A stretch of 64,000 nucleotides of DNA, taken from NCBI GenBank assembly GCA_963735035.1, contig CAVTJJ010000004.1, positions 256,001 to 320,000 on the forward strand, read 5' to 3'. The notes under the pieces are model-generated. The model ran no database searches, was not told the origin of the DNA, and was given only the letters and a program-made list of their open reading frames with translations. The translations under genes and the position numbers were made by a program. The DNA comes from an uncultured candidate division Zixibacteria bacterium (GTDB taxonomy: Bacteria; Zixibacteria; MSB-5A5; GN15; FEB-12). Of this stretch, positions 52,391 to 62,644 are shown piece by piece (position 1 is the stretch's first letter; every line of letters begins with the position of its first letter).

Positions 52391-53638
52391 CTACGCGCCG
52401 TACTTGTCGATGATCTCCTGCTTCGACTTGCCAAGGATGTCGTACTTCTTGCCGACCTTACGGAAAGCGTCGAGCGCTTTGTCGAGATGATGAATCTCGT
52501 GACCGGCGGAGATCTGCGTGCGGATACGCGCCTGGCCTTGCGGCACCACCGGGAAGAAGAAGCCGATCGCGTAGATGCCCTCGGCGAACAAATCGCGCGA
52601 GATATCCTGTGAGAGCTTGGCGTTGAACAACATCACCGGCACGATCGGGGTATCGCCCTCTTTCAGAACGAAGCCGGCCTCCTCGAGACCTTTCCGCCAA
52701 TAGGCGGTGTTCTTCTCGAGTTTGTCGCGTCGCTCGGTACTCTTGGACAGAATATCCAGCACCCGGATAACACCGGAAACCACTACCGGCGCAATAGTAT
52801 TCGAAAACAGGTATGGCCGCGCTCTCTGGCGGCACATCTCGACCAGTTCGCGGCGTCCTGACACGCAGCCGCCCGACGCTCCACCAAGCGCCTTGCCGAA
52901 AGTAGTCGTGATGACATCGATCTTGCCCACCACGCCGTATTTCTCGTGCGTGCCGCGGCCGGTCTTGCCGATGAATCCACTGGAGTGGGAATCGTCTACA
53001 AACAGCATGGCGTCGTACTTATCACACAGTTCCACCATCTTGTCCAACTGCGCCGTGTCGCCGTCCATCGAGAACACGCCGTCAGTGATAACCATGCGGA
53101 CTCTGCGTCCGGCGTGAAGCTGCAATTTCTCTTCGAGATGCTCCATGTTGGCATGTTTGAACGTATCCTGCTCGGCGCTGCACAACCGCATGCCGTCGAT
53201 AATCGACGCATGCACGAGCCGGTCGGCGATCATCATGTCGTCTTTGGTGAGAACGGCCTCGAAGATACCGGCGTTGGCGTCCATGCATGACGGGAACAGA
53301 ATTGTGTCTTCGGTGCCGAGGAAAGCGGTTACTTTGCGTTCCAACTCACGATGTATATCCTGCGTGCCGCAGATAAAGCGTACCGATGACATGCCGTAGC
53401 CACGGCTGTCGAGGCCTTCGTGCGCTGCTTTGAGTACCTCGGGATGGCTGGACATGCCGAGATAGTTGTTGGCGCACATGTTGATTACTTTCTTCGGCGC
53501 GGCGCCGGTCGGAAATTCGACTTCGATATCCGCCGCCTGCGACGAATGTATGTACCGTTCCTGTTTGAACAGGCCGGCGTCCTGAATCCCCTTAAGTTGA
53601 TCTTGATAAATTGTGCGAACCTTATCGCTGTAGCCCAT
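52391..53638 (-). CDS. kbl: Glycine C-acetyltransferase (2-amino-3-ketobutyrate CoA ligase)
   Basis: CANNYLG, SSVRFICGTQ, HASIIDG, DDSH, TFGKALGG, RPYLFSN, ARIRTQ. Confidence 0.92.
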   Translation of the reverse strand: MGYSDKVRTIYQDQLKGIQDAGLFKQERYIHSSQAADIEVEFPTGAAPKKVINMCANNYLGMSSHPEVLKAAHEGLDSRGYGMSSVRFICGTQDIHRELERKVTAFLGTEDTILFPSCMDANAGIFEAVLTKDDMMIADRLVHASIIDGMRLCSAEQDTFKHANMEHLEEKLQLHAGRRVRMVITDGVFSMDGDTAQLDKMVELCDKYDAMLFVDDSHSSGFIGKTGRGTHEKYGVVGKIDVITTTFGKALGGASGGCVSGRRELVEMCRQRARPYLFSNTIAPVVVSGVIRVLDILSKSTERRDKLEKNTAYWRKGLEEAGFVLKEGDTPIVPVMLFNAKLSQDISRDLFAEGIYAIGFFFPVVPQGQARIRTQISAGHEIHHLDKALDAFRKVGKKYDILGKSKQEIIDKYGA

Positions 53639-53710
53639 ATTCGACTCCTAGGTTAGCTGCCACATCGCGAACCGGCCGAATCTTACCCGGCCGGTTAATC
53701 ACACCCGACG

Positions 53711-53956
53711 CTACTTGAGGAATTGCCGGACCAGCGCCACGATTTTGTTGACCGAATCAAATGCTTCGGGGGTGGCCTTCTCATCCGGAATGCTGATCTT
53801 GTACTTGTTCTCGAGGAACCGCTTCAGCGAAACCATGGAAAAAGAATCGACGATACCACCCGAGATCAGGGCCGTGTCGCAATCGATTTCTTCTTCTTCA
53901 TCCTCGAGATATTCGTTCTTTACATATTTCAGAACGGCTTGTTGCATTTCATCCAT
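53711..53956 (-). CDS. Acyl carrier protein
   Basis: Acidic, 81 aa; GGIVDSFSMV; FDSV. Confidence 0.9.
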   Translation of the reverse strand: MDEMQQAVLKYVKNEYLEDEEEEIDCDTALISGGIVDSFSMVSLKRFLENKYKISIPDEKATPEAFDSVNKIVALVRQFLK

Positions 53957-53982
53957 CGATACACCTGCTTCTATATTTGACG

Positions 53983-55686
53983 TTAATCATTTTCCAGTGT
54001 GGAAGTGTCGCCGATTTCCTCGCCCCATTCCTTGGCTCGCAACACTCGGCGCATGATCTTGCCGGAGCGGGTCTTGGGGAGCGACGGTACGTATTCAATC
54101 TCCTGCGGCATAGCCAGCGGGGAGAGTCTCTTGCGAATGAAGTTCATGATATCCAGTTCAAGATCGACACTCGCCTCAAAACCGGGCTTAAGTGTCACGA
54201 ACGCCTTCACCACTTCCATGTTGACTTCGTCCGGCTTGGCCACGACTGCCGATTCCGCCACTGACGGGTGTTCCAGCAGCGCCGATTCGACTTCGAACGG
54301 GCTGACCAGATGTCCGGCGGTGTTGATGATATCGTCATCGCGACCTGCGAACCAGAAGTAACCATCGGCGTCGATACTCGACCGGTCACCCGGCATGTAC
54401 CAGCCGTTCTTGAATTTAGCTTTGTAGGTAGCCTCGTTATTGCGATAGCCGCGCATCATCGCCGGCCATCCAGGTTGAAAGGCAATAAGGCCGATCCGCC
54501 CGGGATCAGTAATAGGTTCGTAGGTCTTGAGATCGAGCACGGTTGCCCCGATGCCGGGGAAGGCGCGCCCCATCGAACCCGGTTTCACTTTCATGCCGGG
54601 GAAATTCGTGATCATCATCGAGCCGGTCTCGGTCTGCCAATACGTATCATGGAACGGTAGGCCGAAGACACGCAGGGACCAATGCACCGCCTCGGCGTTG
54701 AGCGGCTCGCCCACACTGCATAGGTGGCGAAGTGATTTCATGTCGAACTTCTTGACGATCTCGTCACCGGCCTTCATCAAAGACCGGATTGCGGTCGGAG
54801 CCGAATACCAGACCGTCACACGATGCTTCTCAATGAATCGGTACCAGTTCTCCGCCGAGAATCCTACATCCTGCACGCATTGAGTGACGCCCATGGTGAA
54901 GGGTGCGATAATGCCGTACGATGTGCCCGTGACCCAGCCCGGATCGGCGGTGCACCAGTAGACGTCGTCGTCCTTCAGGTCAAGCACCCACTTCGCGGTC
55001 AGGAACTGTGATATGAGCGAGTAGTGTACGTGCTGTACGCCTTTCGGCTTACCGGTAGTGCCGGAGGTGTAGTGAATCACCGAGGGCGACTCGGCTTTGG
55101 TCGGATAGGCCGGGAAATTCTCAACCGGTTTGGCATCGGCGAGTGAGAAAGCAATCTCGCGATCTTTCAACTCTCTCTTGCCGTCGTGATCGACAATGAT
55201 GATGTGCTTGAGGAACGGCATTTGATCGAGAATGCGGCGCACTTTGCCGACATGCTTGCGCTGAGTCAATATGGCAGTTGCCTGAGCGTCTTCAAGGCGC
55301 ACGAAGAGCGAATCTTCACCGAAAGCCGAGAACAGCGGCTGTGCGACGGCGCCCATCTTCAGAATGCCGACAAAGCCCAGATACAGTTCCGGAATGCGGT
55401 CCATAAAAAGACAGACACGATCGCCCGGCTGGATGCCCAGATCGCGCAGATAGGCGGCGATAGTGTTGGTAGTGAGGCGAACATCGTTGTAAGTGTACCG
55501 CTTCTCTTCGGCGCCGGTACCTTCCCAGATAAGCGCCGGTTTGTCGGCTTTGCCCATCTGACAGACACGATCAGAGCAGTACCAGCCGATGTTGATGACA
55601 TCGCCCGCTTTGTAACCGAGTTCCTTTTCAGCGATATCCCAACTGAAATTGCGAGCCCGGTCTTCGTAGTTGCCAAAATTATTCAT
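53983..55686 (-). CDS. acsA: Acetate-CoA ligase (AcsA type)
   Basis: YTSGTTGKPKG, YWCTADPGWVTG, SVGEPLN, DTYWQTETG, PKTRSGKIMRR. Confidence 0.88.
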   Translation of the reverse strand: MNNFGNYEDRARNFSWDIAEKELGYKAGDVINIGWYCSDRVCQMGKADKPALIWEGTGAEEKRYTYNDVRLTTNTIAAYLRDLGIQPGDRVCLFMDRIPELYLGFVGILKMGAVAQPLFSAFGEDSLFVRLEDAQATAILTQRKHVGKVRRILDQMPFLKHIIIVDHDGKRELKDREIAFSLADAKPVENFPAYPTKAESPSVIHYTSGTTGKPKGVQHVHYSLISQFLTAKWVLDLKDDDVYWCTADPGWVTGTSYGIIAPFTMGVTQCVQDVGFSAENWYRFIEKHRVTVWYSAPTAIRSLMKAGDEIVKKFDMKSLRHLCSVGEPLNAEAVHWSLRVFGLPFHDTYWQTETGSMMITNFPGMKVKPGSMGRAFPGIGATVLDLKTYEPITDPGRIGLIAFQPGWPAMMRGYRNNEATYKAKFKNGWYMPGDRSSIDADGYFWFAGRDDDIINTAGHLVSPFEVESALLEHPSVAESAVVAKPDEVNMEVVKAFVTLKPGFEASVDLELDIMNFIRKRLSPLAMPQEIEYVPSLPKTRSGKIMRRVLRAKEWGEEIGDTSTLEND

Positions 55687-55689
55687 CAG

Positions 55690-56070
55690 TTACTCTATTC
55701 CTTCAGGTTGCAGGGCAACCACGGCACAAGCGTATTGATCGGTGAATGACGACGAGACCAGATAACGGTCACTATCGACGCCACCTATCAGTTCGCTCAT
55801 TCGACCGCTCAGTCGAAGCCGGGTCGCACCTGAACGATTCATGACTTCTATATCTCTAAATCTGAGCCCTTCATGCAAACCAATTCCAGCCGCTTTTAGA
55901 AGAGCTTCCTTGACGGCCAGGATAGCGGCGAGGCGGGCATATCCTCGGCGCTTTGTCCGATACTCCGCCAGCTCACTATCGGTGAATATTCCCTCAAGGG
56001 TGCCGTCGGCGCGGTCAACCGCGCTTCTAATCCGGTCTACCGTGACTATGTCTATACCGAATGCTTGCAT
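55690..56070 (-). CDS. acpS: Holo-ACP synthase (AcpS-type PPTase)
   Basis: GIDIV..RI, IFTDSE, AVKEALLKAAG.G. Confidence 0.85.
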   Translation of the reverse strand: MQAFGIDIVTVDRIRSAVDRADGTLEGIFTDSELAEYRTKRRGYARLAAILAVKEALLKAAGIGLHEGLRFRDIEVMNRSGATRLRLSGRMSELIGGVDSDRYLVSSSFTDQYACAVVALQPEGIE

Positions 56071-56096
56071 GTCGTGGCGCTCCGTGATAACCGGCC

Positions 56097-57074
56097 TTAG
56101 CCGATCTTGCTCACCGTGGGCCCTACCCGGAGCTTGCGCGACAACACGTCGATCATGTCGCTGGTCATCCTGGCGAGATCGTACTCAGGTTTCCAGCCCC
56201 ACTCCTTGCGGGCGCAGCTATCATCCATTGAGTTCGGCCACGAATCAGCAATCGCCTGTCGCACCGGATCGACGTTGTAGTCGATCGTGAATTCTGGAAT
56301 ATGCTTGCGGATTTCATCGGCGAGAATCTTTGGGGTGAAGCTCATTGCTGTAACGTTGAACGAATTCCGATGTATCAGCTTCGTGCCATCAGCCTCCATC
56401 AGGTCGATCATGGCGCGAATGGCATCAGGCATGTACATCATATCGAGCCAGGTGTCGGGTCTGAGATAGCAGGTGTATTTCTTACTCTTGATAGCCTGAT
56501 AGAAGATGTCCACAGCGTAATCGGTGGTGCCGCCACCCGGTTCGGTTTCATACGAGATCAATCCGGGGAAGCGAACGCCCCGGGTATCGAGTCCGAACCG
56601 TTTGTGGTAATAGTCACACAGTAGTTCGCCGGCCACTTTGGTGACGCCGTAGATTGTGTCGGGCCGCTGTATTGTATCCTGAGGGGTCTTGTCCTGTGGA
56701 GTCGACTTTCCAAACGCGCCTATTGAGCTAGGAAAGAACAGCGAACACTTATGCTGCTGTGCCGCTTCGAGAAAATTGAACAGGCCGTTCATGTTGACCT
56801 GCCAGGCGGTGCCGGGGCGGGACTCGCCGGTGGCGGACAGGATCGCTCCCAGATGATAGATCGTATCGATATCATGAACCTGCATCACACGGGAGATATG
56901 ATGCGGCAGGGTGACGTCCAGAAATTCAAACGGGCCGGCATCGCGCAGCCGTACGTCGGTGGGCATGCGGATGTCGGTCGCGACTACTTTGTCATCACCA
57001 TATTTCTGTCTGAGTGCGGCGGTCAGTTCGGATCCGATCTGACCGAGAGCGCCGGTAACCAGAATCTGCTTCAT
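56097..57074 (-). CDS. tdh: L-threonine 3-dehydrogenase (SDR/GalE-like)
   Basis: TGALGQIG, LSATGE, PSSIGAFG, YGVTK, PGGGTTDYAV, MMYMPD, RQAIADSWP. Confidence 0.88.
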   Translation of the reverse strand: MKQILVTGALGQIGSELTAALRQKYGDDKVVATDIRMPTDVRLRDAGPFEFLDVTLPHHISRVMQVHDIDTIYHLGAILSATGESRPGTAWQVNMNGLFNFLEAAQQHKCSLFFPSSIGAFGKSTPQDKTPQDTIQRPDTIYGVTKVAGELLCDYYHKRFGLDTRGVRFPGLISYETEPGGGTTDYAVDIFYQAIKSKKYTCYLRPDTWLDMMYMPDAIRAMIDLMEADGTKLIHRNSFNVTAMSFTPKILADEIRKHIPEFTIDYNVDPVRQAIADSWPNSMDDSCARKEWGWKPEYDLARMTSDMIDVLSRKLRVGPTVSKIG

Positions 57075-57257
57075 CTCAAAGGACCTCAATAGCTTACTGT
57101 TGCGGGCGCGAATCTGAAATATTTCGCCGCCCAAGCCGTCCACGTTGCCGGCCAGCTCGCTGGAAAATAAGGAACGGGCAGGAAAAATCAAGCGAATCCG
57201 CGCTATCAGACGCGATTCCGCACCAACATCTGTCTATGGGGAAGATCCGCTTAATAG

Positions 57258-57385
57258 TCATTGCGAGCGGAGATGGCTCGCCGTCAGGCGTGGCATCGTA
57301 GCGCGGCAATCTCAATGTTGTTGCACCAGTATCATTTGAGATCGCCACGTCTCGCCCGCGAAGCGCGGCCGAGACTCGCGATGAC
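57258..57385 (+). mobile_element. Palindromic MITE-like element, fourth copy
   Basis: GTCATTGCGAGCGGAGATGG...GCAATCTC...GAGATCGCCAC...CTCGCGATGAC. Confidence 0.75.
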
Positions 57386-57407
57386 GGGGAGTGAACTTCT
57401 ACAACAA

Positions 57408-58073
57408 TTAGTCCGGTGGTCGTATGGTAGCGATAGCGGCCAACAACTGTTCTTTGTTGGCGATAGATATCTTGCGTCCTCTGATTGGTAGATCAGGCAG
57501 ATCTCTGGCGTAGCGCCTTAGTTTGACCACTGGCATCGCTGCAAGCTGTTCCCACGTTGGCTGTTCGGAAGAGATCTCTGAAGTGTGGGCAGGAATGCGG
57601 ACGGGTGGAGTGGCGATTCGAATTGGCGCCTCTACTATCGCGGGTTCTTTGTGACTAACGGGAGCCGGTGCTTTTGGTTTGGTAGGCTTTCTGGCAGGCT
57701 TGGTTGGCGATGCGACACGAACCGCGGCGGCCTTCTCGGGAGCCGGCTTCTTGAGAATCGGGGCGGAAGACTCGTCGGGACTGTAGCGGTCGACAAAACG
57801 CGGATAAGGCATGATCGCACTGACTTCGTCGTCGGATTTTGGGATCACGTGCATCGACACCAGTTCGCCGGCGACATAGGCAGCGCGTGCTCCAGCTTCA
57901 ACTGCTCCCTGGACCGCCGACCATTCACCCTCAATCTTGACCGTCATGCGGCCGGACGCTCCCTGCTCCGCCGAGACAATCACTACCTCACCCAAATCCG
58001 ATGCGGCGCGGGTCGCCTTGATGGCGCCTTCAATGCCGCTTGTTTCTACTAGTCCTAACGCTGGTCGTGGCAT
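57408..58073 (-). CDS. BMC-H shell protein with Pro/Ala/Lys linker and C-terminal helical domain
   Basis: ALGLVET.G...AI.A, VKIEGEWSAVQGAVEAG, HVIPK; C-terminal VVKLRRYAR...ISIANKEQL. Confidence 0.85.
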   Translation of the reverse strand: MPRPALGLVETSGIEGAIKATRAASDLGEVVIVSAEQGASGRMTVKIEGEWSAVQGAVEAGARAAYVAGELVSMHVIPKSDDEVSAIMPYPRFVDRYSPDESSAPILKKPAPEKAAAVRVASPTKPARKPTKPKAPAPVSHKEPAIVEAPIRIATPPVRIPAHTSEISSEQPTWEQLAAMPVVKLRRYARDLPDLPIRGRKISIANKEQLLAAIATIRPPD

Positions 58074-58252
58074 GATCCTGAACCTACAAAATGCCGTGCT
58101 CCGATTCAACCAATAAAGTGATCGACAACTTGTGGAACATAAATGAGCGTCGCCCGTGCATCCCCTCGAGCACGGGCGACTGGGCACCAAGAAAAAGAGG
58201 ACCTACCGAGCGCCTTGTCAGCGCCAGGAGTAAGAATGACGCAACGGTATTT

Positions 58253-58268
58253 AGCAAGGGCTGTGCCA
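58253..58268 (-). promoter_or_regulatory. sigma54 -24/-12 promoter
   Basis: Minus strand TGGCAC-AGCCC-TTGCT, matching the consensus. Confidence 0.8.
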
Positions 58269-58356
58269 TCGAGTTGGTCGCATTACGTATGGTATTGTGT
58301 TTCAACAAGTTGGGGCGTGTGACGGGTAGTATAGGATGGGTGTGGCCGGTTTTGGT

Positions 58357-58372
58357 TCGTATGAACATACGA
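58357..58372. promoter_or_regulatory. Candidate upstream activator sequence
   Basis: Perfect inverted repeat TCGTATG-AA-CATACGA about 120 bp upstream of the predicted sigma54 +1. Confidence 0.45.
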
Positions 58373-58383
58373 CCGACGGACAT

Positions 58384-58424
58384 AAAAAAGGCGGTAAGTG
58401 CTTGACCGGGGGACACTTACCGCC
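58384..58424 (-). terminator. Intrinsic terminator of the peptide/TPR-bEBP operon
   Basis: 11-bp stem GGCGGTAAGTG/CACTTACCGCC followed by T6 on the minus strand. Confidence 0.8.
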
Positions 58425-58487
58425 ACCAAGGAGTGTTCTTTATAATCGTACGGTGTCACGAGACAATTCTTGAGAATCGTCCTGTGA

Positions 58488-60761
58488 CTAGTTGGGCATG
58501 CCGCCCTCCGCGCTGATCCCGTACCGTTTCAGCTTGGTTCTCACGGTCGCTTCATGGACGCCGAGGATGCGAGCCGCCTCGCTCTTGTTACCGCCGGCCG
58601 CCAGAAGCGCTTCGGTAATCAACTGCCGCTCGAATTGTTCGACACGTTCAAACAGGCCACCGGCATTGTCGGCCGCGTGGTCGGGAGCCAGAATCGACCG
58701 GGCTACTTCGTGCCACTGACCTTCAGCCACCGACTGTGACATTATTGAAAGCCGATTGACGACATTGTCTAGCTCGCGAACGTTGCCGGGCCAATCATGA
58801 CCAACGAACTGCTGCACCAATTCCGGCGCCGGTTTCTGTCCCGGCTTGAGCAGCCCACGATGAATCATGAAGTGCTCCAGCAGCAGAGGGATGTCTTCCT
58901 TGCGCGAGCGCAGTGACGGAAGATGCAGGGTGATCCCGCTCAGTCGGTAGTAGAGGTCCCGACGGAACGTGCCCTGTTCCACCATCGCTTCGAGATCGCG
59001 GTTGGTGGCCGCCACCACGATGATATCAATCTCGACCTGCTTGGTGCTTCCCAGCGGTGTTACGCGCCGTGATTCCAGTACGCCGAGCAGTTTCGCCTGG
59101 AGCGACAACGGCATTTCGCCGATCTCGTCGAACAAGAAAACGCCGCCGTTAGCCGATTCGAGCAGACCTTTCTTATTGTGGTCCGCTCCGGTGAAGGCGC
59201 CTCTGTGGTAACCGAACAGTTCCGATTCGAGCAGCGTCTCGGGCACCGAGGCGCAGTTGATCGCCACGTACGGTCCACTGGGTCGAACCTGCGAGTGATA
59301 GTACCTCGCCAGGTGATCCTTGCCGACACCCGTCTCGCCCGTAATAAGCACCGGCAAATCGGAGCGATTCAAGAGCGGCAGTTGCTTCTTGATTCGCTCG
59401 ATAATCGGAGACTGAGTGAGATATTCATGCTCGCCGGGGGTCGGAGAGGATTCGTGCGTCTGCTGTGTGACCTTAGCCAGACGGCCGATTTCGTTGGCCA
59501 GCCGGCTGACCTCGTCCTGTTTCGACTTGATCCGACACCGGGAGTAGAATTCTTCGGCCCTGAACAGATAAGTCAGGCGTTGTTGGTCGGAGAACGCTTC
59601 GGAGGCTCCGGCCGCAATCAACGCTTCGGCCTTGGCCCATCGAACACCCGATTCGGCCAGAATGTCGATAGCCTTCTGGAACAACTGACGGGCTTCAACC
59701 GCCTGTCGTTCACTCACCGGACGGGCTTCACCCATAGCCACCTGAGCCATGATCTTCTTGAGCGCGCCGAGTTCGAGTTTCTCGTCGGAGCGTTCCATGA
59801 TAACCGTGGCTCGCGCCGCCATCTTCTGAGCTTGACGATAGTCGCCGGTGCGCACGGCCAGTTCGGCCAGATGACGCATTACCCGGCCGGACAGCGAGGT
59901 GCCTGAACCAAGAAGTTCCGCTTTCTCGAAAGCGCGTCTCAGGGTCAGGGCCGACTGCGCGAAGTCGGCAATGCGATAGTTCAGCTCACCCAGATAAGTC
60001 AGGTAACTGACTTCATCACGCGGCGAGTTGACCACCGTGAGCAAAACGCCGGCCTGGTTGAATTCCGCCTCGGCCTTGTCATACTCTGCCTGCTGCAGGT
60101 AGACGTATCCGAGAGATAGATGGGCGCGAAGCGTATTGAGATCGTCACCCAGTTCACCGGACATCTGGATATTGATCCGGAGATGTTTCTCCGCTTCAAT
60201 GAAATCACCCATGAACATATATATGCGGCCGATGTTGCCCATCATGAAAGCCAGCTTGCGCGGGTTATCGAGCCGTCGGGCGATTTCGACCGCATCCATC
60301 AGCACCGCCAGAGCGTTACGGTAGTCGGTCTGTCGGAGATACAGTCCGGCCAGACGATTCAGTGCCCGGCTCTGACCTTCGGGACAATCATATCTTCTGA
60401 AAATCGATTCCGCGTCGCGGTACGCCTTCTGTGCTTCAACAAGTTCACCCCTGTCTCGCAGGATACCTCCCAGGGTAACGAAGACCTCGGCCAGCATCAA
60501 CGAGTCGCCGGCGCGGGTAACGATAGCCTGGGCAGTCCGTGCCACCTTCAAGGCAGCTGTCAGATTGGTGAGGGAAGCATAAGCCCGAGCCGCCAGATGC
60601 AGGATTTCTCCTACTTCGGCTGCTCCGGCTTCAGTGTCTATCTGGCTCTGTTGAGCCTCATAGCACTGCACGGCGCCGACAAAGTCTTGCCTGGCCAGCA
60701 TCGCCCGCATGTGGGCGGCCGCCGAAACGCAGAACGTCTTGTCTACGTCGTGTTGGCTCAT
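58488..60761 (-). CDS. TPR-domain sigma54-dependent activator (bEBP) with Fis HTH
   Basis: About 430 aa of TPR-like helices; GETGVGKD, ESELFG..GAFTGA, FLFDEIGE, WPGNVREL, GNKSEAARILG. Confidence 0.92.
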   Translation of the reverse strand: MSQHDVDKTFCVSAAAHMRAMLARQDFVGAVQCYEAQQSQIDTEAGAAEVGEILHLAARAYASLTNLTAALKVARTAQAIVTRAGDSLMLAEVFVTLGGILRDRGELVEAQKAYRDAESIFRRYDCPEGQSRALNRLAGLYLRQTDYRNALAVLMDAVEIARRLDNPRKLAFMMGNIGRIYMFMGDFIEAEKHLRINIQMSGELGDDLNTLRAHLSLGYVYLQQAEYDKAEAEFNQAGVLLTVVNSPRDEVSYLTYLGELNYRIADFAQSALTLRRAFEKAELLGSGTSLSGRVMRHLAELAVRTGDYRQAQKMAARATVIMERSDEKLELGALKKIMAQVAMGEARPVSERQAVEARQLFQKAIDILAESGVRWAKAEALIAAGASEAFSDQQRLTYLFRAEEFYSRCRIKSKQDEVSRLANEIGRLAKVTQQTHESSPTPGEHEYLTQSPIIERIKKQLPLLNRSDLPVLITGETGVGKDHLARYYHSQVRPSGPYVAINCASVPETLLESELFGYHRGAFTGADHNKKGLLESANGGVFLFDEIGEMPLSLQAKLLGVLESRRVTPLGSTKQVEIDIIVVAATNRDLEAMVEQGTFRRDLYYRLSGITLHLPSLRSRKEDIPLLLEHFMIHRGLLKPGQKPAPELVQQFVGHDWPGNVRELDNVVNRLSIMSQSVAEGQWHEVARSILAPDHAADNAGGLFERVEQFERQLITEALLAAGGNKSEAARILGVHEATVRTKLKRYGISAEGGMPN

Positions 60762-61123
60762 TACTTCTCCCTTCTAAGAGGCAGGAAATGCTTCCGGCTC
60801 GAGATAACCGCGGATGAACTCTTGTCCGCCACGTCGGTATTTGACAAAGTCGCCGATTGAGGTGTGCGCGCCGGACTGATCAAAGTGGCGATAAGCACAT
60901 CAATTATTGGGATTCCGGTCAGAACCGTGACTCTGAAAGTCTTGGTGCCGCCGCCGCCGATGACTTCGTCATCGCCCCAGGGATGATCGCCATCCACGAC
61001 CGTACCGCCGCCGGTGCCGGGTTGGTCTAAGCCCTCGCCCCGCATGATGCCTGCATTGAGAGGCATAGCTGAGGCGACTACTAGTACCAGTATCAGGACC
61101 AGTACCGAGTAAACGTGTTTCAT
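60761..61123 (-). CDS. Small secreted protein / putative pre-peptide with GDHPWG motif
   Basis: AAGGAG RBS; signal peptide; Gly-flanked DGDHPWGDDE; TAATG coupling to the bEBP gene. Confidence 0.7.
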   Translation of the reverse strand: MKHVYSVLVLILVLVVASAMPLNAGIMRGEGLDQPGTGGGTVVDGDHPWGDDEVIGGGGTKTFRVTVLTGIPIIDVLIATLISPARTPQSATLSNTDVADKSSSAVISSRKHFLPLRREK

Positions 61124-61241
61124 GACACACTCCTTGGTATGAGTAGTTAGTGTAACTTTTTCTTCAAGTCGTCCGCCGAATGCAGTCAGTCACTGGTGGC
61201 GGCCGTGAGGGGATGGGTAAAACGTCATTCCGGTCACACTT

Positions 61242-61270
61242 AGGATAGCTTATTGCAAAGCGCTTGTCAA
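61242..61270 (-). promoter_or_regulatory. sigma70 promoter of the peptide/bEBP operon
   Basis: Minus strand TTGACA-N17-TATCCT. Confidence 0.7.
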
Positions 61271-61425
61271 TCAAAATGTTAAGGCTCGGAAGTTTGTTGT
61301 TAGCGGATGCCGTGCGCCGAAAATAGCAAGTCGCAGGATATCGGTGATCAGCGCTACGATTATATATCCTTAGAACAGATCAAAGTAGAACCCTTTGTAG
61401 ATGTTCAAAGAGTTCATACCGGAAA

Positions 61426-62367
61426 CTAAGAATGAATCAGAACCAATTGTACACAATCCGGTTCATCTTTGGGGTCACAATAGTGAAACTCGACCCTTAC
61501 AAATGCGCCGACAGGCCGGTTGTCCTTGATCTTGGGGCTAAACACCCAACTAGGTAAGACTGCCGTAAGGTTCTTCGCAAAACCGTACTCTCGTGGCTCT
61601 TCCTTGATGACAAGGTACTGGCAAGTATTGACTACCTCGTTTGAGTCGACAAAGAACCGCAACCGGGCGCTCTTACCATCCTTCATGACAAAGTCGAGGA
61701 AGAATCCGGACGAGTCACTCAGAGGCTGTGATACCGCGGCATATGGCCTCATGGCGCCCGTCGAATCGACGTACATAAGTACTTCGACGAATCCTCCCCG
61801 GTTATTCTCCAAGGCCATAAAGGGAATTTTCGGCGGAGTCTTGGCAATGACCTCGATTTCCCGATTCACCACCCTCCTGGGCAAGGCGTCGACATCATCA
61901 GGCAAGAAGTCCGCAGTCTCGGGAGAGAACTCGCCAGACTCGGTATCGATATCGATTTGCGAATAGGACAAGTTCGTATCCACATTGATTCGGGCTTGTA
62001 AGTGAGGAATTACCTTTGACGGTTTCACTTTCGCCAGCATCGGAACATCGGGAATGATCGTGTACCCCCTGAATCCCGCGAAACCCTTATGCTGTTTCTC
62101 ATACGGATTAAGTCCGTTTGACTGACGGGCTGCTGTGAAAGCGCCATCGTCTGGCACAGCTACTTGGACAGTCAGGTCAGGTTGCGCACTCTTAGACACA
62201 ACCTCGTCGCGGAGTTGTAGCGGCCCAAGATACTTGATACCTACTGCAACCACGAGCGCAAGCCCGGTTACTATCCCCAGCGCCATAAGCATGTTCCGCT
62301 GGTATTTCTCCTTCAGTTCGAACCCAATGGCAGAAAACGAATTGTTCTGCAAGTCAAGTGTCTCCAA
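61426..62367 (-). CDS. Divergent TonB-like membrane protein
   Basis: GFELKEKYQRN+TM resembles the Bacteroidota TonB N-terminus; PKIP..A....GFVEV..VD..G and W.FSP.I.D.RPV resemble TonB_C. Confidence 0.55.
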   Translation of the reverse strand: METLDLQNNSFSAIGFELKEKYQRNMLMALGIVTGLALVVAVGIKYLGPLQLRDEVVSKSAQPDLTVQVAVPDDGAFTAARQSNGLNPYEKQHKGFAGFRGYTIIPDVPMLAKVKPSKVIPHLQARINVDTNLSYSQIDIDTESGEFSPETADFLPDDVDALPRRVVNREIEVIAKTPPKIPFMALENNRGGFVEVLMYVDSTGAMRPYAAVSQPLSDSSGFFLDFVMKDGKSARLRFFVDSNEVVNTCQYLVIKEEPREYGFAKNLTAVLPSWVFSPKIKDNRPVGAFVRVEFHYCDPKDEPDCVQLVLIHS

Positions 62368-62443: not shown

Positions 62444-62644
62444 CTACCACCATTCGTTGACGGTAATAGTCAAGAACTCTTGCATATCTACTGCTGCACA
62501 CCGTGTTCCCCACCAGGCGCAGTCAAACGCGGTGATGCATGTCCTGTAACGATCACAGGCCACCTGGAACGCACCTGCCGACGCCGGGATCATCGCGAGC
62601 ACGAACGCCAGCACCAGCGTCATCGCAACAATTTTTTTCAGCAC
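62444..62644 (-). CDS. Small secreted Cys-containing peptide
   Basis: AAGGAG RBS, GTG start, signal peptide ending AGA, 4 Cys in the mature part. Confidence 0.65.
   Translation of the reverse strand: MLKKIVAMTLVLAFVLAMIPASAGAFQVACDRYRTCITAFDCAWWGTRCAAVDMQEFLTITVNEWW

Follow-up and report, generated by a model that had tools for sequence, protein, structure and literature searches.

A conserved regulatory cassette of Zixibacteria joins a small HPW-motif protein, a TPR-AAA+ activator and a candidate sigma-54-dependent small RNA

A regulatory cassette conserved across an order of Zixibacteria

We analysed a 64-kb stretch of DNA (the window) from an uncultured Zixibacteria bacterium (contig CAVTJJ010000004.1, positions 256,001 to 320,000), whose genome is 3.6 Mb long and 96.9% complete. 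It contains a cassette in which a small gene, encoding a signal-like N-terminus and a conserved His-Pro-Trp (HPW) motif, overlaps the downstream gene of an activator made of tetratricopeptide repeats (TPR), an AAA+ domain and a helix-turn-helix (HTH). Conservation among relatives shows that this gene pair, its coupling, two palindromes, a sigma-54 promoter and a structured RNA make up one regulatory cassette of Zixibacteria. We infer with good support, from structure prediction, that the TPR groove takes the HPW motif as its ligand and, from comparison of the loci, that the activator binds the palindromes and activates the RNA promoter. Coordinates are positions within the window, and all parts of the cassette lie on its minus strand, where we recovered every element named in the original prediction: the promoter, the 120-amino-acid (aa) open reading frame (ORF), the TAATG overlap, the activator, the terminator, the palindrome and TGGCAC-N5-TTGCT.

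A sigma-70-type promoter (TTGACA-17-TATCCT, 61270..61242), matching 10 of 12 consensus positions, heads the operon. Such a match alone is not above chance (two sites in the scan vs a shuffle mean of 2.0); in an alignment of 21 relatives the promoter is kept as TTGACA-N17-TATnnT. The small gene (60761..61123) follows, preceded by a conserved ribosome-binding region, ACCAAGGAGTGT (61127..61138), and its stop overlaps the start of the 757-aa activator ORF (58488..60761), base 60761 being common to the two. The activator consists of a TPR sensor domain (residues 1-440, 59442..60761), matching Pfam TPR_12 (E 1.8e-26) and TPR_MalT, and of a C-terminal part (58488..59441) that contains the AAA+ sigma-54 interaction domain (residues 449-612, Sigma54_activat, PF00158, E 1.5e-60), the AAA lid and HTH_8 (residues 707-747, E 9.4e-13). 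The sigma-54 contact loop GAFTGA and the Walker A motif GETGVGKD are intact in the translation, no transmembrane stretch was noticed in it by eye, and the genome encodes rpoN (E 3.2e-58). The operon ends at an intrinsic terminator (58424..58384) composed of GGCGGTAAGTG, a 13-nucleotide (nt) loop, CACTTACCGCC and T6. Our hairpin scan permits loops of 3-8 bases only and hence does not return this terminator; its hairpin sequence, GGTAAGYG...CRCTTACC, recurs in the intergenic stretches of most of the 21 relatives.

A TPR-domain orthologue is present in 40/40 relatives of the same order. We collected 32 loci from four families of this order, comprising the own genome and 31 relatives (29 best loci and two more), and in all 32 the orthologous activator is preceded on its own strand by an ORF of 110-136 aa whose N-terminus is signal-like and which has an H-x-W-G motif. 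Signal peptides were judged by eye and by regular expression (n/h/c regions). The coupling of the two genes is equally constant: the activator start lies -4 to +18 nt from the small-ORF stop in 31/31 loci, and its Shine-Dalgarno sequence sits within the last codons of the small ORF. The original prediction had suggested testing whether an upstream signal-peptide ORF with a (D/E)HPW core co-occurs with activator homologues, and it does so in 32/32 orthologous loci, in 21/21 paralogous loci and in other orders. Three activators (L052, L055 and L056) have the variant sigma-54 contact loops GAFTDA and GAYTDA instead of GAFTGA. These loci retain the small ORF and the RNA, and the RNA scores lower in L055 and L056.

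The distribution of the small protein was followed with a sequence profile, which matches 205 of 285 Zixibacteria genomes. Matches cover the four families of the own order (f1 97/107, f2 5/5, f3 14/14, f4 33/33) and seven other families (f5 19/21, f9 6/6, f14 18/20, f20 7/15, f13 2/9, f15 2/4, f10 1/6), with zero matches in nine other families of the phylum among the same 285 genomes. A search of 1.84 billion representative proteins returns 355 clusters at E up to 0.001, the 150 best listed being 94-139 aa long. With a degenerate DNA pattern for [DE]DHPWGG[DE] we found 85 stretches in about 186,000 species genomes, 80 of which were analysed by script. A signal-peptide ORF together with a downstream activator signature is present at 36 of these 80, and about 11 more are the same kind of ORF on truncated loci or outside the regular expression. 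About 28 have no signal segment; they are mostly high-GC actinobacterial frames and look like chance (rough expectation about 17).

Paralogous gene pairs as a candidate second channel

The same genome contains a second pair 825 kb away, in which a 97-aa signal-peptide ORF with the sequence AFSGEHPWDSDR (GEHPWDSD) is followed by a 979-aa TPR-AAA+ activator. In this paralogous family, represented by the own genome and 20 relatives, an upstream signal-peptide ORF with [DE]-x-P-W-[DEN] right past the predicted cleavage site is found at all 21 loci; the motif reads HPW in 15 and N/L/G/D-PW in six, and the gap between the small ORF and the activator is 17-151 nt. Pairs of the same kind occur in other orders. 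Specifically, a SHPWQDDNQW small ORF overlaps a 734-738-aa TPR protein in f5, GHPWGEY accompanies an 803-aa activator in f14, and GHPWDDG accompanies a 973-aa activator in f20. Thus, the (D/E)HPW core is the common denominator of small-ORF/TPR-activator pairs across the phylum. For the paralogous family we considered an ATCUN (N-terminal X-X-His) metal site and dropped it, as the His is missing in 6/21 members.

By eye, the paralogous pair (L225, G000:C4:1141173-1147500; also L228) is followed by a lipoate-protein-ligase-like ORF and a TonB-dependent-receptor-like ORF. The latter has a carboxypeptidase-regulatory-like N-terminus, and the gene order is the same in the distant family f20. These ORFs could be the target of the paralogous channel or an outer-membrane uptake route.

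The conserved motif of the small protein is predicted to bind the TPR groove

The 120-aa protein has a basic and hydrophobic, signal-like segment at residues 1-24, and residues 38-59 read GGGTVVDGDHPWGDDEVIGGGG. Its motif, DGDHPWGDDEVI, spans residues 44-55 (D44-I55, about 60959-60994), and an amphipathic stretch, TGIPIIDVLIATLI, and a polar tail are its further features. In an alignment of 31 of the 32 small proteins, which omits L033 as a near-copy of L032, only M1, H47, W49 and G50 are invariant and the mean column identity is 23%. The motif logo is G-[DE]-D-H-[PT]-W-G-G-[DE]. Of the 150 top profile matches, which are 94-139 aa long, 147 have H.WG, with 41 as its median position. The small protein matches no Pfam or NCBIfam family, and a look-up in the ESM Atlas gave no usable match. 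In the source records its homologues, likewise without a Pfam family, are annotated solely as 'hypothetical protein', and those of the activator only as 'sigma 54-interacting transcriptional regulator' or 'tetratricopeptide repeat protein'. Two other readings of the small protein were dropped. A lipobox, suggested by a Cys common in the signal segments, does not hold, as the Cys is missing from the window protein and several others; a second hydrophobic stretch is not read as transmembrane, since most homologues have D/E/K/R there.

An AlphaFold model of activator residues 1-440, built from 31 sequences, is a 22-helix superhelix made entirely of helical hairpins (predicted local distance difference test score, pLDDT, 93.8; predicted template modelling score, pTM, 0.87), in agreement with the TPR fold expected of the N-terminal domain. 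The closest solved folds among the Foldseek matches listed are LGN/Pins, OGT, MalT DIII and KLC1. The LGN/Pins entries 6hc2, 3sf4 and 4wnd (E about 1e-9, TM 0.7-0.8 to the target) are titled as complexes with NuMA, Inscuteable or Frmpd4, and the KLC1 entry 6swu (E 8e-7) as a complex with a cargo peptide.

We co-folded the TPR domain (residues 1-440) with residues 25-120 of the small protein, both as alignments. The pair scores 0.82 (0.82, 0.83 and 0.79 in the individual runs), whereas three controls all give 0.01 or less and the best of them 0.01; the mark applied is reached by 116/157 solved complexes and 2/215 mismatched pairs. The runs share at least 20% of their contacts, and the pLDDT of the partner is 35-39, so that its own fold is uncertain. 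The confident interface on the small protein consists of residues 44-55 alone, i.e., the invariant motif, which is placed in the groove; the co-folding test suggested in the original prediction thus came out in its favour. The tightest pairs join W49 to N176 and R179, and the sensor side is a strip of the groove in which G175, N176, R179 and Y219 are invariant and N135 and A213 nearly so. Conservation is higher in the 31 interface residues (0.714) than in TPR residues 60-339 as a whole (0.599), and 44 of 10,000 random samples reach the interface value. We know of no solved complex of the HPW/TPR-activator family.

A sigma-54 promoter heads a conserved candidate small RNA

Past the activator stop, the relatives show a conserved order of elements: a palindrome, a word complementary to the ribosome-binding site (RBS) of the small gene, the terminator, a second palindrome and, after about 100-130 nt, YGGCAY-N5-TTGCT. 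In the window, candidate upstream activator site 1, TCGTGACACCGTACGA in minus-strand reading (58446..58461), has one mismatch to TCGTA-N6-TACGA, and candidate site 2, the perfect-arm palindrome TCGTATGTTCATACGA (58357..58372), matches it. The two sites flank the activator's terminator and lie 178 and 89 nt upstream of the sigma-54 promoter. Two TCGTA-N6-TACGA sites 87-93 nt apart are found in 13/21 loci and at least one in 18/21. The promoter itself, TGGCACAGCCCTTGCT (58268..58253), is an exact TGGCAC-N5-TTGCT and the only exact TGGCAC-N5-TTGCW in the window; in relatives, a YGGCAY-N5-TTGCT-like site lies 186-473 nt past the activator stop.

Downstream of this promoter we predict a small RNA of ~105 nt (58139..58243, predicted ends). 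A search of sequencing runs listed none with RNA for 57900-61300. In the window it is laid out as a 5' end with GUCAUUCUUACUCC, a first hairpin, the single-stranded CU-rich stretch UCCUCUUUUUCUUGGUG and a terminator hairpin with the loop GAGGGGA. The parts conserved in relatives are the 5' sequence GUCAUUUUUACUCC, a hairpin of variable sequence, the single-stranded UCCUCUUUUCUUUGGUG, the GAGGGGA-loop hairpin and a U-run. It belongs to no Rfam family at gathering score, the best match reaching 19 bits vs 45 and covering the promoter only. When the own genome is searched with a covariance model of 20 sequences, 58139-58243 is the sole match (E 6e-20). In the phylum the model matches 70 of 151 sampled genomes (f1 51/54, f2 3/3, f3 10/10 and f4 5/15); no copy was found in 68 sampled genomes of other families. 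In the 30 best RNA loci, an activator C-terminus homologue always lies directly upstream on the same strand, at a distance of 100-545 nt (measured in 29).

The two-hairpin structure is supported by covariation. Across 40 model-aligned sequences 86.3% of cells are paired, and sliding the partners by 1-3 columns lowers this to 30-48%. Both sides change in 21 of 24 pairs, and 0/500 shuffles reach any of the observed measures. This alignment was fitted to the terminator helix, which favours that helix; RNAalifold on a MAFFT alignment finds compensatory changes in 9/12 terminator pairs. A BMC-domain gene follows about 60-310 nt past the RNA in 13 of the 30 loci, and none is present within 1.5 kb in the other 17. 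The RNA is thus conserved independently of the next gene, indicating that what the sigma-54 promoter most likely produces, as its conserved output, is the small RNA. The adjacent sigma-54 promoter of the original prediction is therefore confirmed as a site, being exact and the sole one in the window, and reinterpreted in its role, as the unit it heads is a conserved candidate small RNA and not just the gene that follows.

The 3' untranslated region carries a covarying complement of the small gene's RBS

The RBS of the small gene, AACCAAGGAGTGT, is unusually conserved, and a perfect complement of 61127-61138 is located in the 3' untranslated region (UTR) of the same operon (ACACTCCTTGGT, 58425..58436), abutting the 5' side of the terminator stem. 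The word ACCAAGGAG is present only twice in the window, at the small-gene RBS and, as the reverse complement, just 5' of the operon terminator; genome-wide its 28 occurrences, nine of them before ORF starts, are about what chance would give (roughly 27.6). The 12-nt complementarity between 61127-61138 and 58425-58436 recurs as Watson-Crick runs of 9-13 nt in 11/21 loci, compared with a median of 6 nt in other 330-nt windows of the same loci. The RBS and 3'UTR words covary, as in CCAAGGAGTAAT / ATTACTCCTTGG, TAGCAAGGAGC / GCTCCTTGCTA and ACGTAGGAGTA / TACTCCTACGT. This covarying anti-RBS points to translational feedback on the small gene, which could act by 5'-3' pairing of the mRNA or by way of a fragment processed from the 3'UTR. 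Between promoter and RBS, the small gene's 5'UTR (61140-61240, minus strand) also has a C-rich CCCCTCAC-like word that is kept in many of the 21 relatives.

Proposed mechanism and alternative explanations

As conservation shows, a sigma-70 promoter drives the small signal-peptide protein and, by translational coupling, a cytoplasmic TPR-AAA+-HTH activator. On this basis we propose the following mechanism. Because of the co-fold and the conservation of the groove, G-[DE]-D-H-P-W-G-G-[DE] is taken to be the input, an extended peptide that would lie in the concave TPR groove on N176, R179 and Y219. The exported motif would return to the cytoplasmic sensor by re-import of a fragment from the periplasm or the medium, which is the weakest step. 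Bound to the two palindromes that flank its own terminator, the activator would open the sigma-54 promoter about 100 nt further, and the single-stranded CU-rich, anti-Shine-Dalgarno-like stretch of the resulting RNA would act on mRNAs. The 3'UTR anti-RBS would add feedback on translation of the small gene. The weak U-run of the RNA terminator makes read-through possible in this genus, where the sigma-54 transcript may also run into the BMC/threonine-dehydrogenase/Kbl genes of threonine catabolism. We give this reading as a whole (re-entry after export, groove binding, an activator-driven small RNA and anti-RBS feedback) a probability of roughly 0.55. A bolder extension, which we offer only tentatively and would sooner doubt than assert, is a phylum-wide diderm circuit with at least two to three paralogous channels per lineage: an exported protein would yield an HPW peptide, this peptide would come back into the cytoplasm and bind the TPR sensor, and the activator would fire a single small RNA that resets translation of a regulon, so that an RRNPP-type input and a LuxO/Qrr-type output would have been joined by convergence.

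Several observations weigh against a returning peptide or against parts of its output. The motif lies behind a signal peptide while the TPR sensor is cytoplasmic. It is near the N-terminus of a 95-aa mature protein and not at the C-terminus of a short pro-peptide, the mature protein has other conserved features (R-x-x-P-[YW] and the amphipathic TG[YF]xx[ILV]D), and the motif is nearly invariant across the order, in contrast to the diversifying pherotype peptides typical of quorum-sensing systems. No SBP_bac_5 (Opp/Dpp) protein was found in the genome by a search whose control is positive in 11/14 known genomes. The genome does encode four OPT-family transporters and one PTR2 transporter; OPT is present in 270/285 genomes, including every cassette-free family except f12 (0/1), and is uninformative as a cassette-linked importer because it occurs irrespective of the cassette. 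The co-fold score is a model confidence, obtained from custom alignments and calibrated only roughly. On the output side, the RNA terminator in the window has a poor U-run (GCUCAUUUAUGUU) with the BMC gene about 66 nt later, and here the RNA may partly serve as a leader for that gene; judged by duplex energies, the small RNA pairs with the RBS of the small gene no more strongly than with a shuffled RBS (z about 0). Finally, four small signal-peptide ORFs of 71-129 aa (L126, L137, L171 and L183) contain DDHPWGG[DE] with no activator within 2 kb. They come from metagenome-assembled genome (MAG) records not labelled Zixibacteria, that of L183 being titled Kerfeldbacteria. In these ORFs the motif directly follows the signal segment, additional acidic Trp motifs are present, and the C-terminus is hydrophobic or aromatic; L126 and L183 have a homologous neighbour gene in common. 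They are the main hint that the DDHPWGG[DE] motif may act outside the pairing with an activator.

Near-invariance of the motif and strict coupling fit equally well with binding before export. Here the small protein would occupy the TPR groove before it is exported and Sec export would remove it, so that the activator and the small RNA report the export state and no re-import is needed. The co-fold and groove conservation apply equally to this arrangement, and the coupling in 31/31 loci makes both proteins at one place in a fixed ratio. It also suits a genome with no Opp system and no importer that tracks the cassette, and control by the 3'UTR anti-RBS fits a dosage-sensitive partner. However, the motif begins only about 20 residues past the signal peptide and would enter the translocon early, Sec substrates are normally cytoplasmic only briefly, and the paralogous genes lie 17-151 nt apart without overlap. 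We consider binding before export unlikely, and second in rank to re-entry after export.

Third in rank, and in our judgement distinctly improbable, is that the two proteins make no direct contact, the small one being an envelope or extracellular protein with its own HPW function that is merely co-operonic with a TPR activator sensing something else. The signal-peptide ORFs without an adjacent activator in the four other MAG records would be expected in this case, as would conserved features of the small protein that a peptide signal does not need, and a co-fold can pass wrongly (2/215 mismatched pairs reached the mark). Against it stand the adjacency in 32/32 orthologous and 21/21 paralogous loci over divergence on the scale of the phylum, the coincidence of the predicted interface with exactly the invariant motif and invariant groove residues, and the three co-fold controls at 0.01 or less. 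The last place belongs to a secretion-monitoring leader of the SecM/MifM/VemP kind, in which H-P-W-G-G would stall the ribosome unless the translocon pulls, the stall controlling translation of the overlapping activator. A signal-peptide ORF translationally coupled to a regulated gene, an invariant Pro/Trp/Gly-rich motif, and a conserved RBS with long-range RNA pairing in the operon would all suit such a leader. Known secretion monitors, however, stall within a few codons of the ORF end, beside the regulated start; the HPW motif occupies residues 44-55 of 120 and ends 65 codons before the stop, and a ribosome stalled there cannot expose the activator start. The paralogous family moreover retains the motif though its genes do not overlap, and the co-fold accounts for motif conservation without stalling. 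We regard this explanation as highly implausible. Re-entry after export thus remains first in the ranking.

Genes next to the cassette

The first gene past the small RNA encodes a BMC-domain protein (57408..58073, minus strand; Pfam BMC E 4.1e-15) with a long C-terminal extension, a 130-aa Pro/Lys-rich part with a helical end. It opens a row of genes on the same strand (52391-58073) for the BMC protein, an epimerase-family dehydrogenase, a holo-ACP synthase, an acetate-CoA ligase and a glycine C-acetyltransferase (Kbl). The dehydrogenase is likely a threonine dehydrogenase (Pfam Epimerase; its best NCBIfam match, D-erythronate dehydrogenase, is below the cut-off). The downstream Tdh/ACPS/Acs/Kbl genes are common to close relatives only. 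In L043, L045 and L052, the BMC gene is followed by an EutN/CcmL-type pentamer gene, as read by eye.

Upstream of the cassette, a 313-aa ORF (61426-62367, minus strand) has no Pfam or NCBIfam family and contains one N-terminal hydrophobic segment after KYQRNMLM. It is not syntenic in the 20 relatives checked; an ORF near the HPW gene of L126 (L126:1-915) begins with the similar word SLYQRNMLIG. Two genes upstream of the cassette, a 66-aa ORF (62444-62644, minus strand) combines a signal-like N-terminus with a tail rich in Cys and Trp (…CDRYRTCITAFDCAWWGTRCAAV…WW). It is also without a Pfam family and could be another kind of small secreted peptide.

Comparison with known regulatory systems

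Signalling by a receptor encoded next to a propeptide is described as a trait of Firmicutes and their mobile elements, and the known inputs of enhancer-binding proteins are phosphorelay, small molecules and partner proteins. If the proposed mechanism is correct, the cassette would provide the first case of a gene-encoded ligand for a sigma-54 activator with a TPR sensor, and its read-out would be compact, with one promoter and one small RNA. It also opens a first way into the regulation of this phylum, which is widespread in sediments and soils and from which, to our knowledge, no isolate is available. All its parts are small and well delimited: a 12-residue motif, a 440-residue sensor, two 16-bp sites and a 105-nt RNA. 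A surrogate host would therefore allow a direct test of how the motif, once exported, comes to meet a sensor in the cytoplasm. The original prediction had stated that no equivalent was described, and our literature searches, with subscription journals outside their coverage, likewise found no published equivalent of a TPR-sigma54 activator with an HPW peptide. The strings HPWGG and DHPWGG do not occur among the literature matches listed, all of which were 'ehpw', and none of the matches listed for sigma-54, small RNA, quorum sensing or microcompartment names Zixibacteria.

On the input side, the cassette resembles the RRNPP pairs (Rap-Phr, NprR-NprX, PlcR-PapR, PrgX and AimR-AimP) in that a small signal-peptide gene adjoins the gene of a cytoplasmic TPR-type receptor and that the conserved part of the small protein is short and, by prediction, occupies the groove. 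However, no RRNPP receptor is found among the Foldseek matches listed through rank 50 (37 rows), and the search for RRNPP-specific Pfam families is negative at E up to 0.01. The cassette's output is an AAA+ sigma-54 activator domain (449-612) with a C-terminal HTH_8 (707-747), whereas RRNPP receptors act through an N-terminal HTH or a phosphatase/anti-activator surface. The phylum is diderm (a TolC-type OEP gene is present in the window), the genome has no Opp binding protein, the motif is N-proximal and near-invariant, and the peptide gene lies upstream of the receptor gene. In the RRNPP_Detector paper (PMC10075063), genetically encoded peptide signals are assigned to the Bacillota/Firmicutes, with small molecules as typical of Pseudomonadota and Actinomycetota. 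Because its fold relatives and output domain are different and Opp is missing, the cassette is not a member of the RRNPP family. The RRNPP-like peptide-sensing system wired to sigma-54 of the original prediction thus holds for the TPR receptor, the adjacent signal-peptide ORF and the predicted groove binding, and fails for receptor homology, output domain and Opp.

On the output side, the activator has the features of an enhancer-binding protein: an AAA+ domain with GAFTGA and Walker motifs, an HTH, rpoN in the genome, and a -24/-12 promoter with candidate upstream sites. By conservation, the candidate RNA shares with sigma-54-dependent small RNAs a -24/-12 promoter, a covarying structure, its own terminator and retention independent of the next gene. 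CbrB-CrcZ and GlrR-GlmY are sigma-54 activator/small RNA systems similar to LuxO-Qrr. LuxO and sigma-54 drive the Qrr small RNAs of Vibrio, according to bioRxiv 10.1101/2021.07.01.450815. In these systems, as proposed for the cassette, a sigma-54 activator drives a small RNA encoded beside its own gene and the output is post-transcriptional. Unlike them, with their phosphorelay-fed response regulators, the cassette has a TPR sensor and a gene-encoded candidate ligand, and its RNA is single-copy per genome and without an Rfam family at gathering score.

Three further comparisons concern single parts of the cassette. LGN/Pins and KLC1 also form a TPR superhelix that takes an extended peptide in its concave channel, and KLC recognises an acidic-flanked Trp motif; the likeness is one of fold and binding mode only. 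Both are scaffold proteins of eukaryotes, and where they align with the model they share 18-22% of its residues. Anti-regulators that are secreted include FlgM, by flagellar export, and ExsE, by type III secretion; if binding precedes export, the cassette would resemble them in tying expression to secretion of a small binding partner. It would differ in that export uses general Sec through an ordinary signal peptide and that a sigma-54 activator takes the place of the sigma factor or AraC-type cascade. In the icaR mRNA of Staphylococcus aureus, a 3'UTR anti-Shine-Dalgarno sequence pairs with the message's own 5'UTR. The cassette similarly has a pre-terminator stretch that complements the Shine-Dalgarno region of its own transcript's first gene; it differs in being a two-gene operon, in which pairing could occur in cis or via a processed 3'UTR fragment. 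Taken together, the cassette would work like RRNPP systems on its input side and like LuxO-Qrr on its output side, and is a member of neither.

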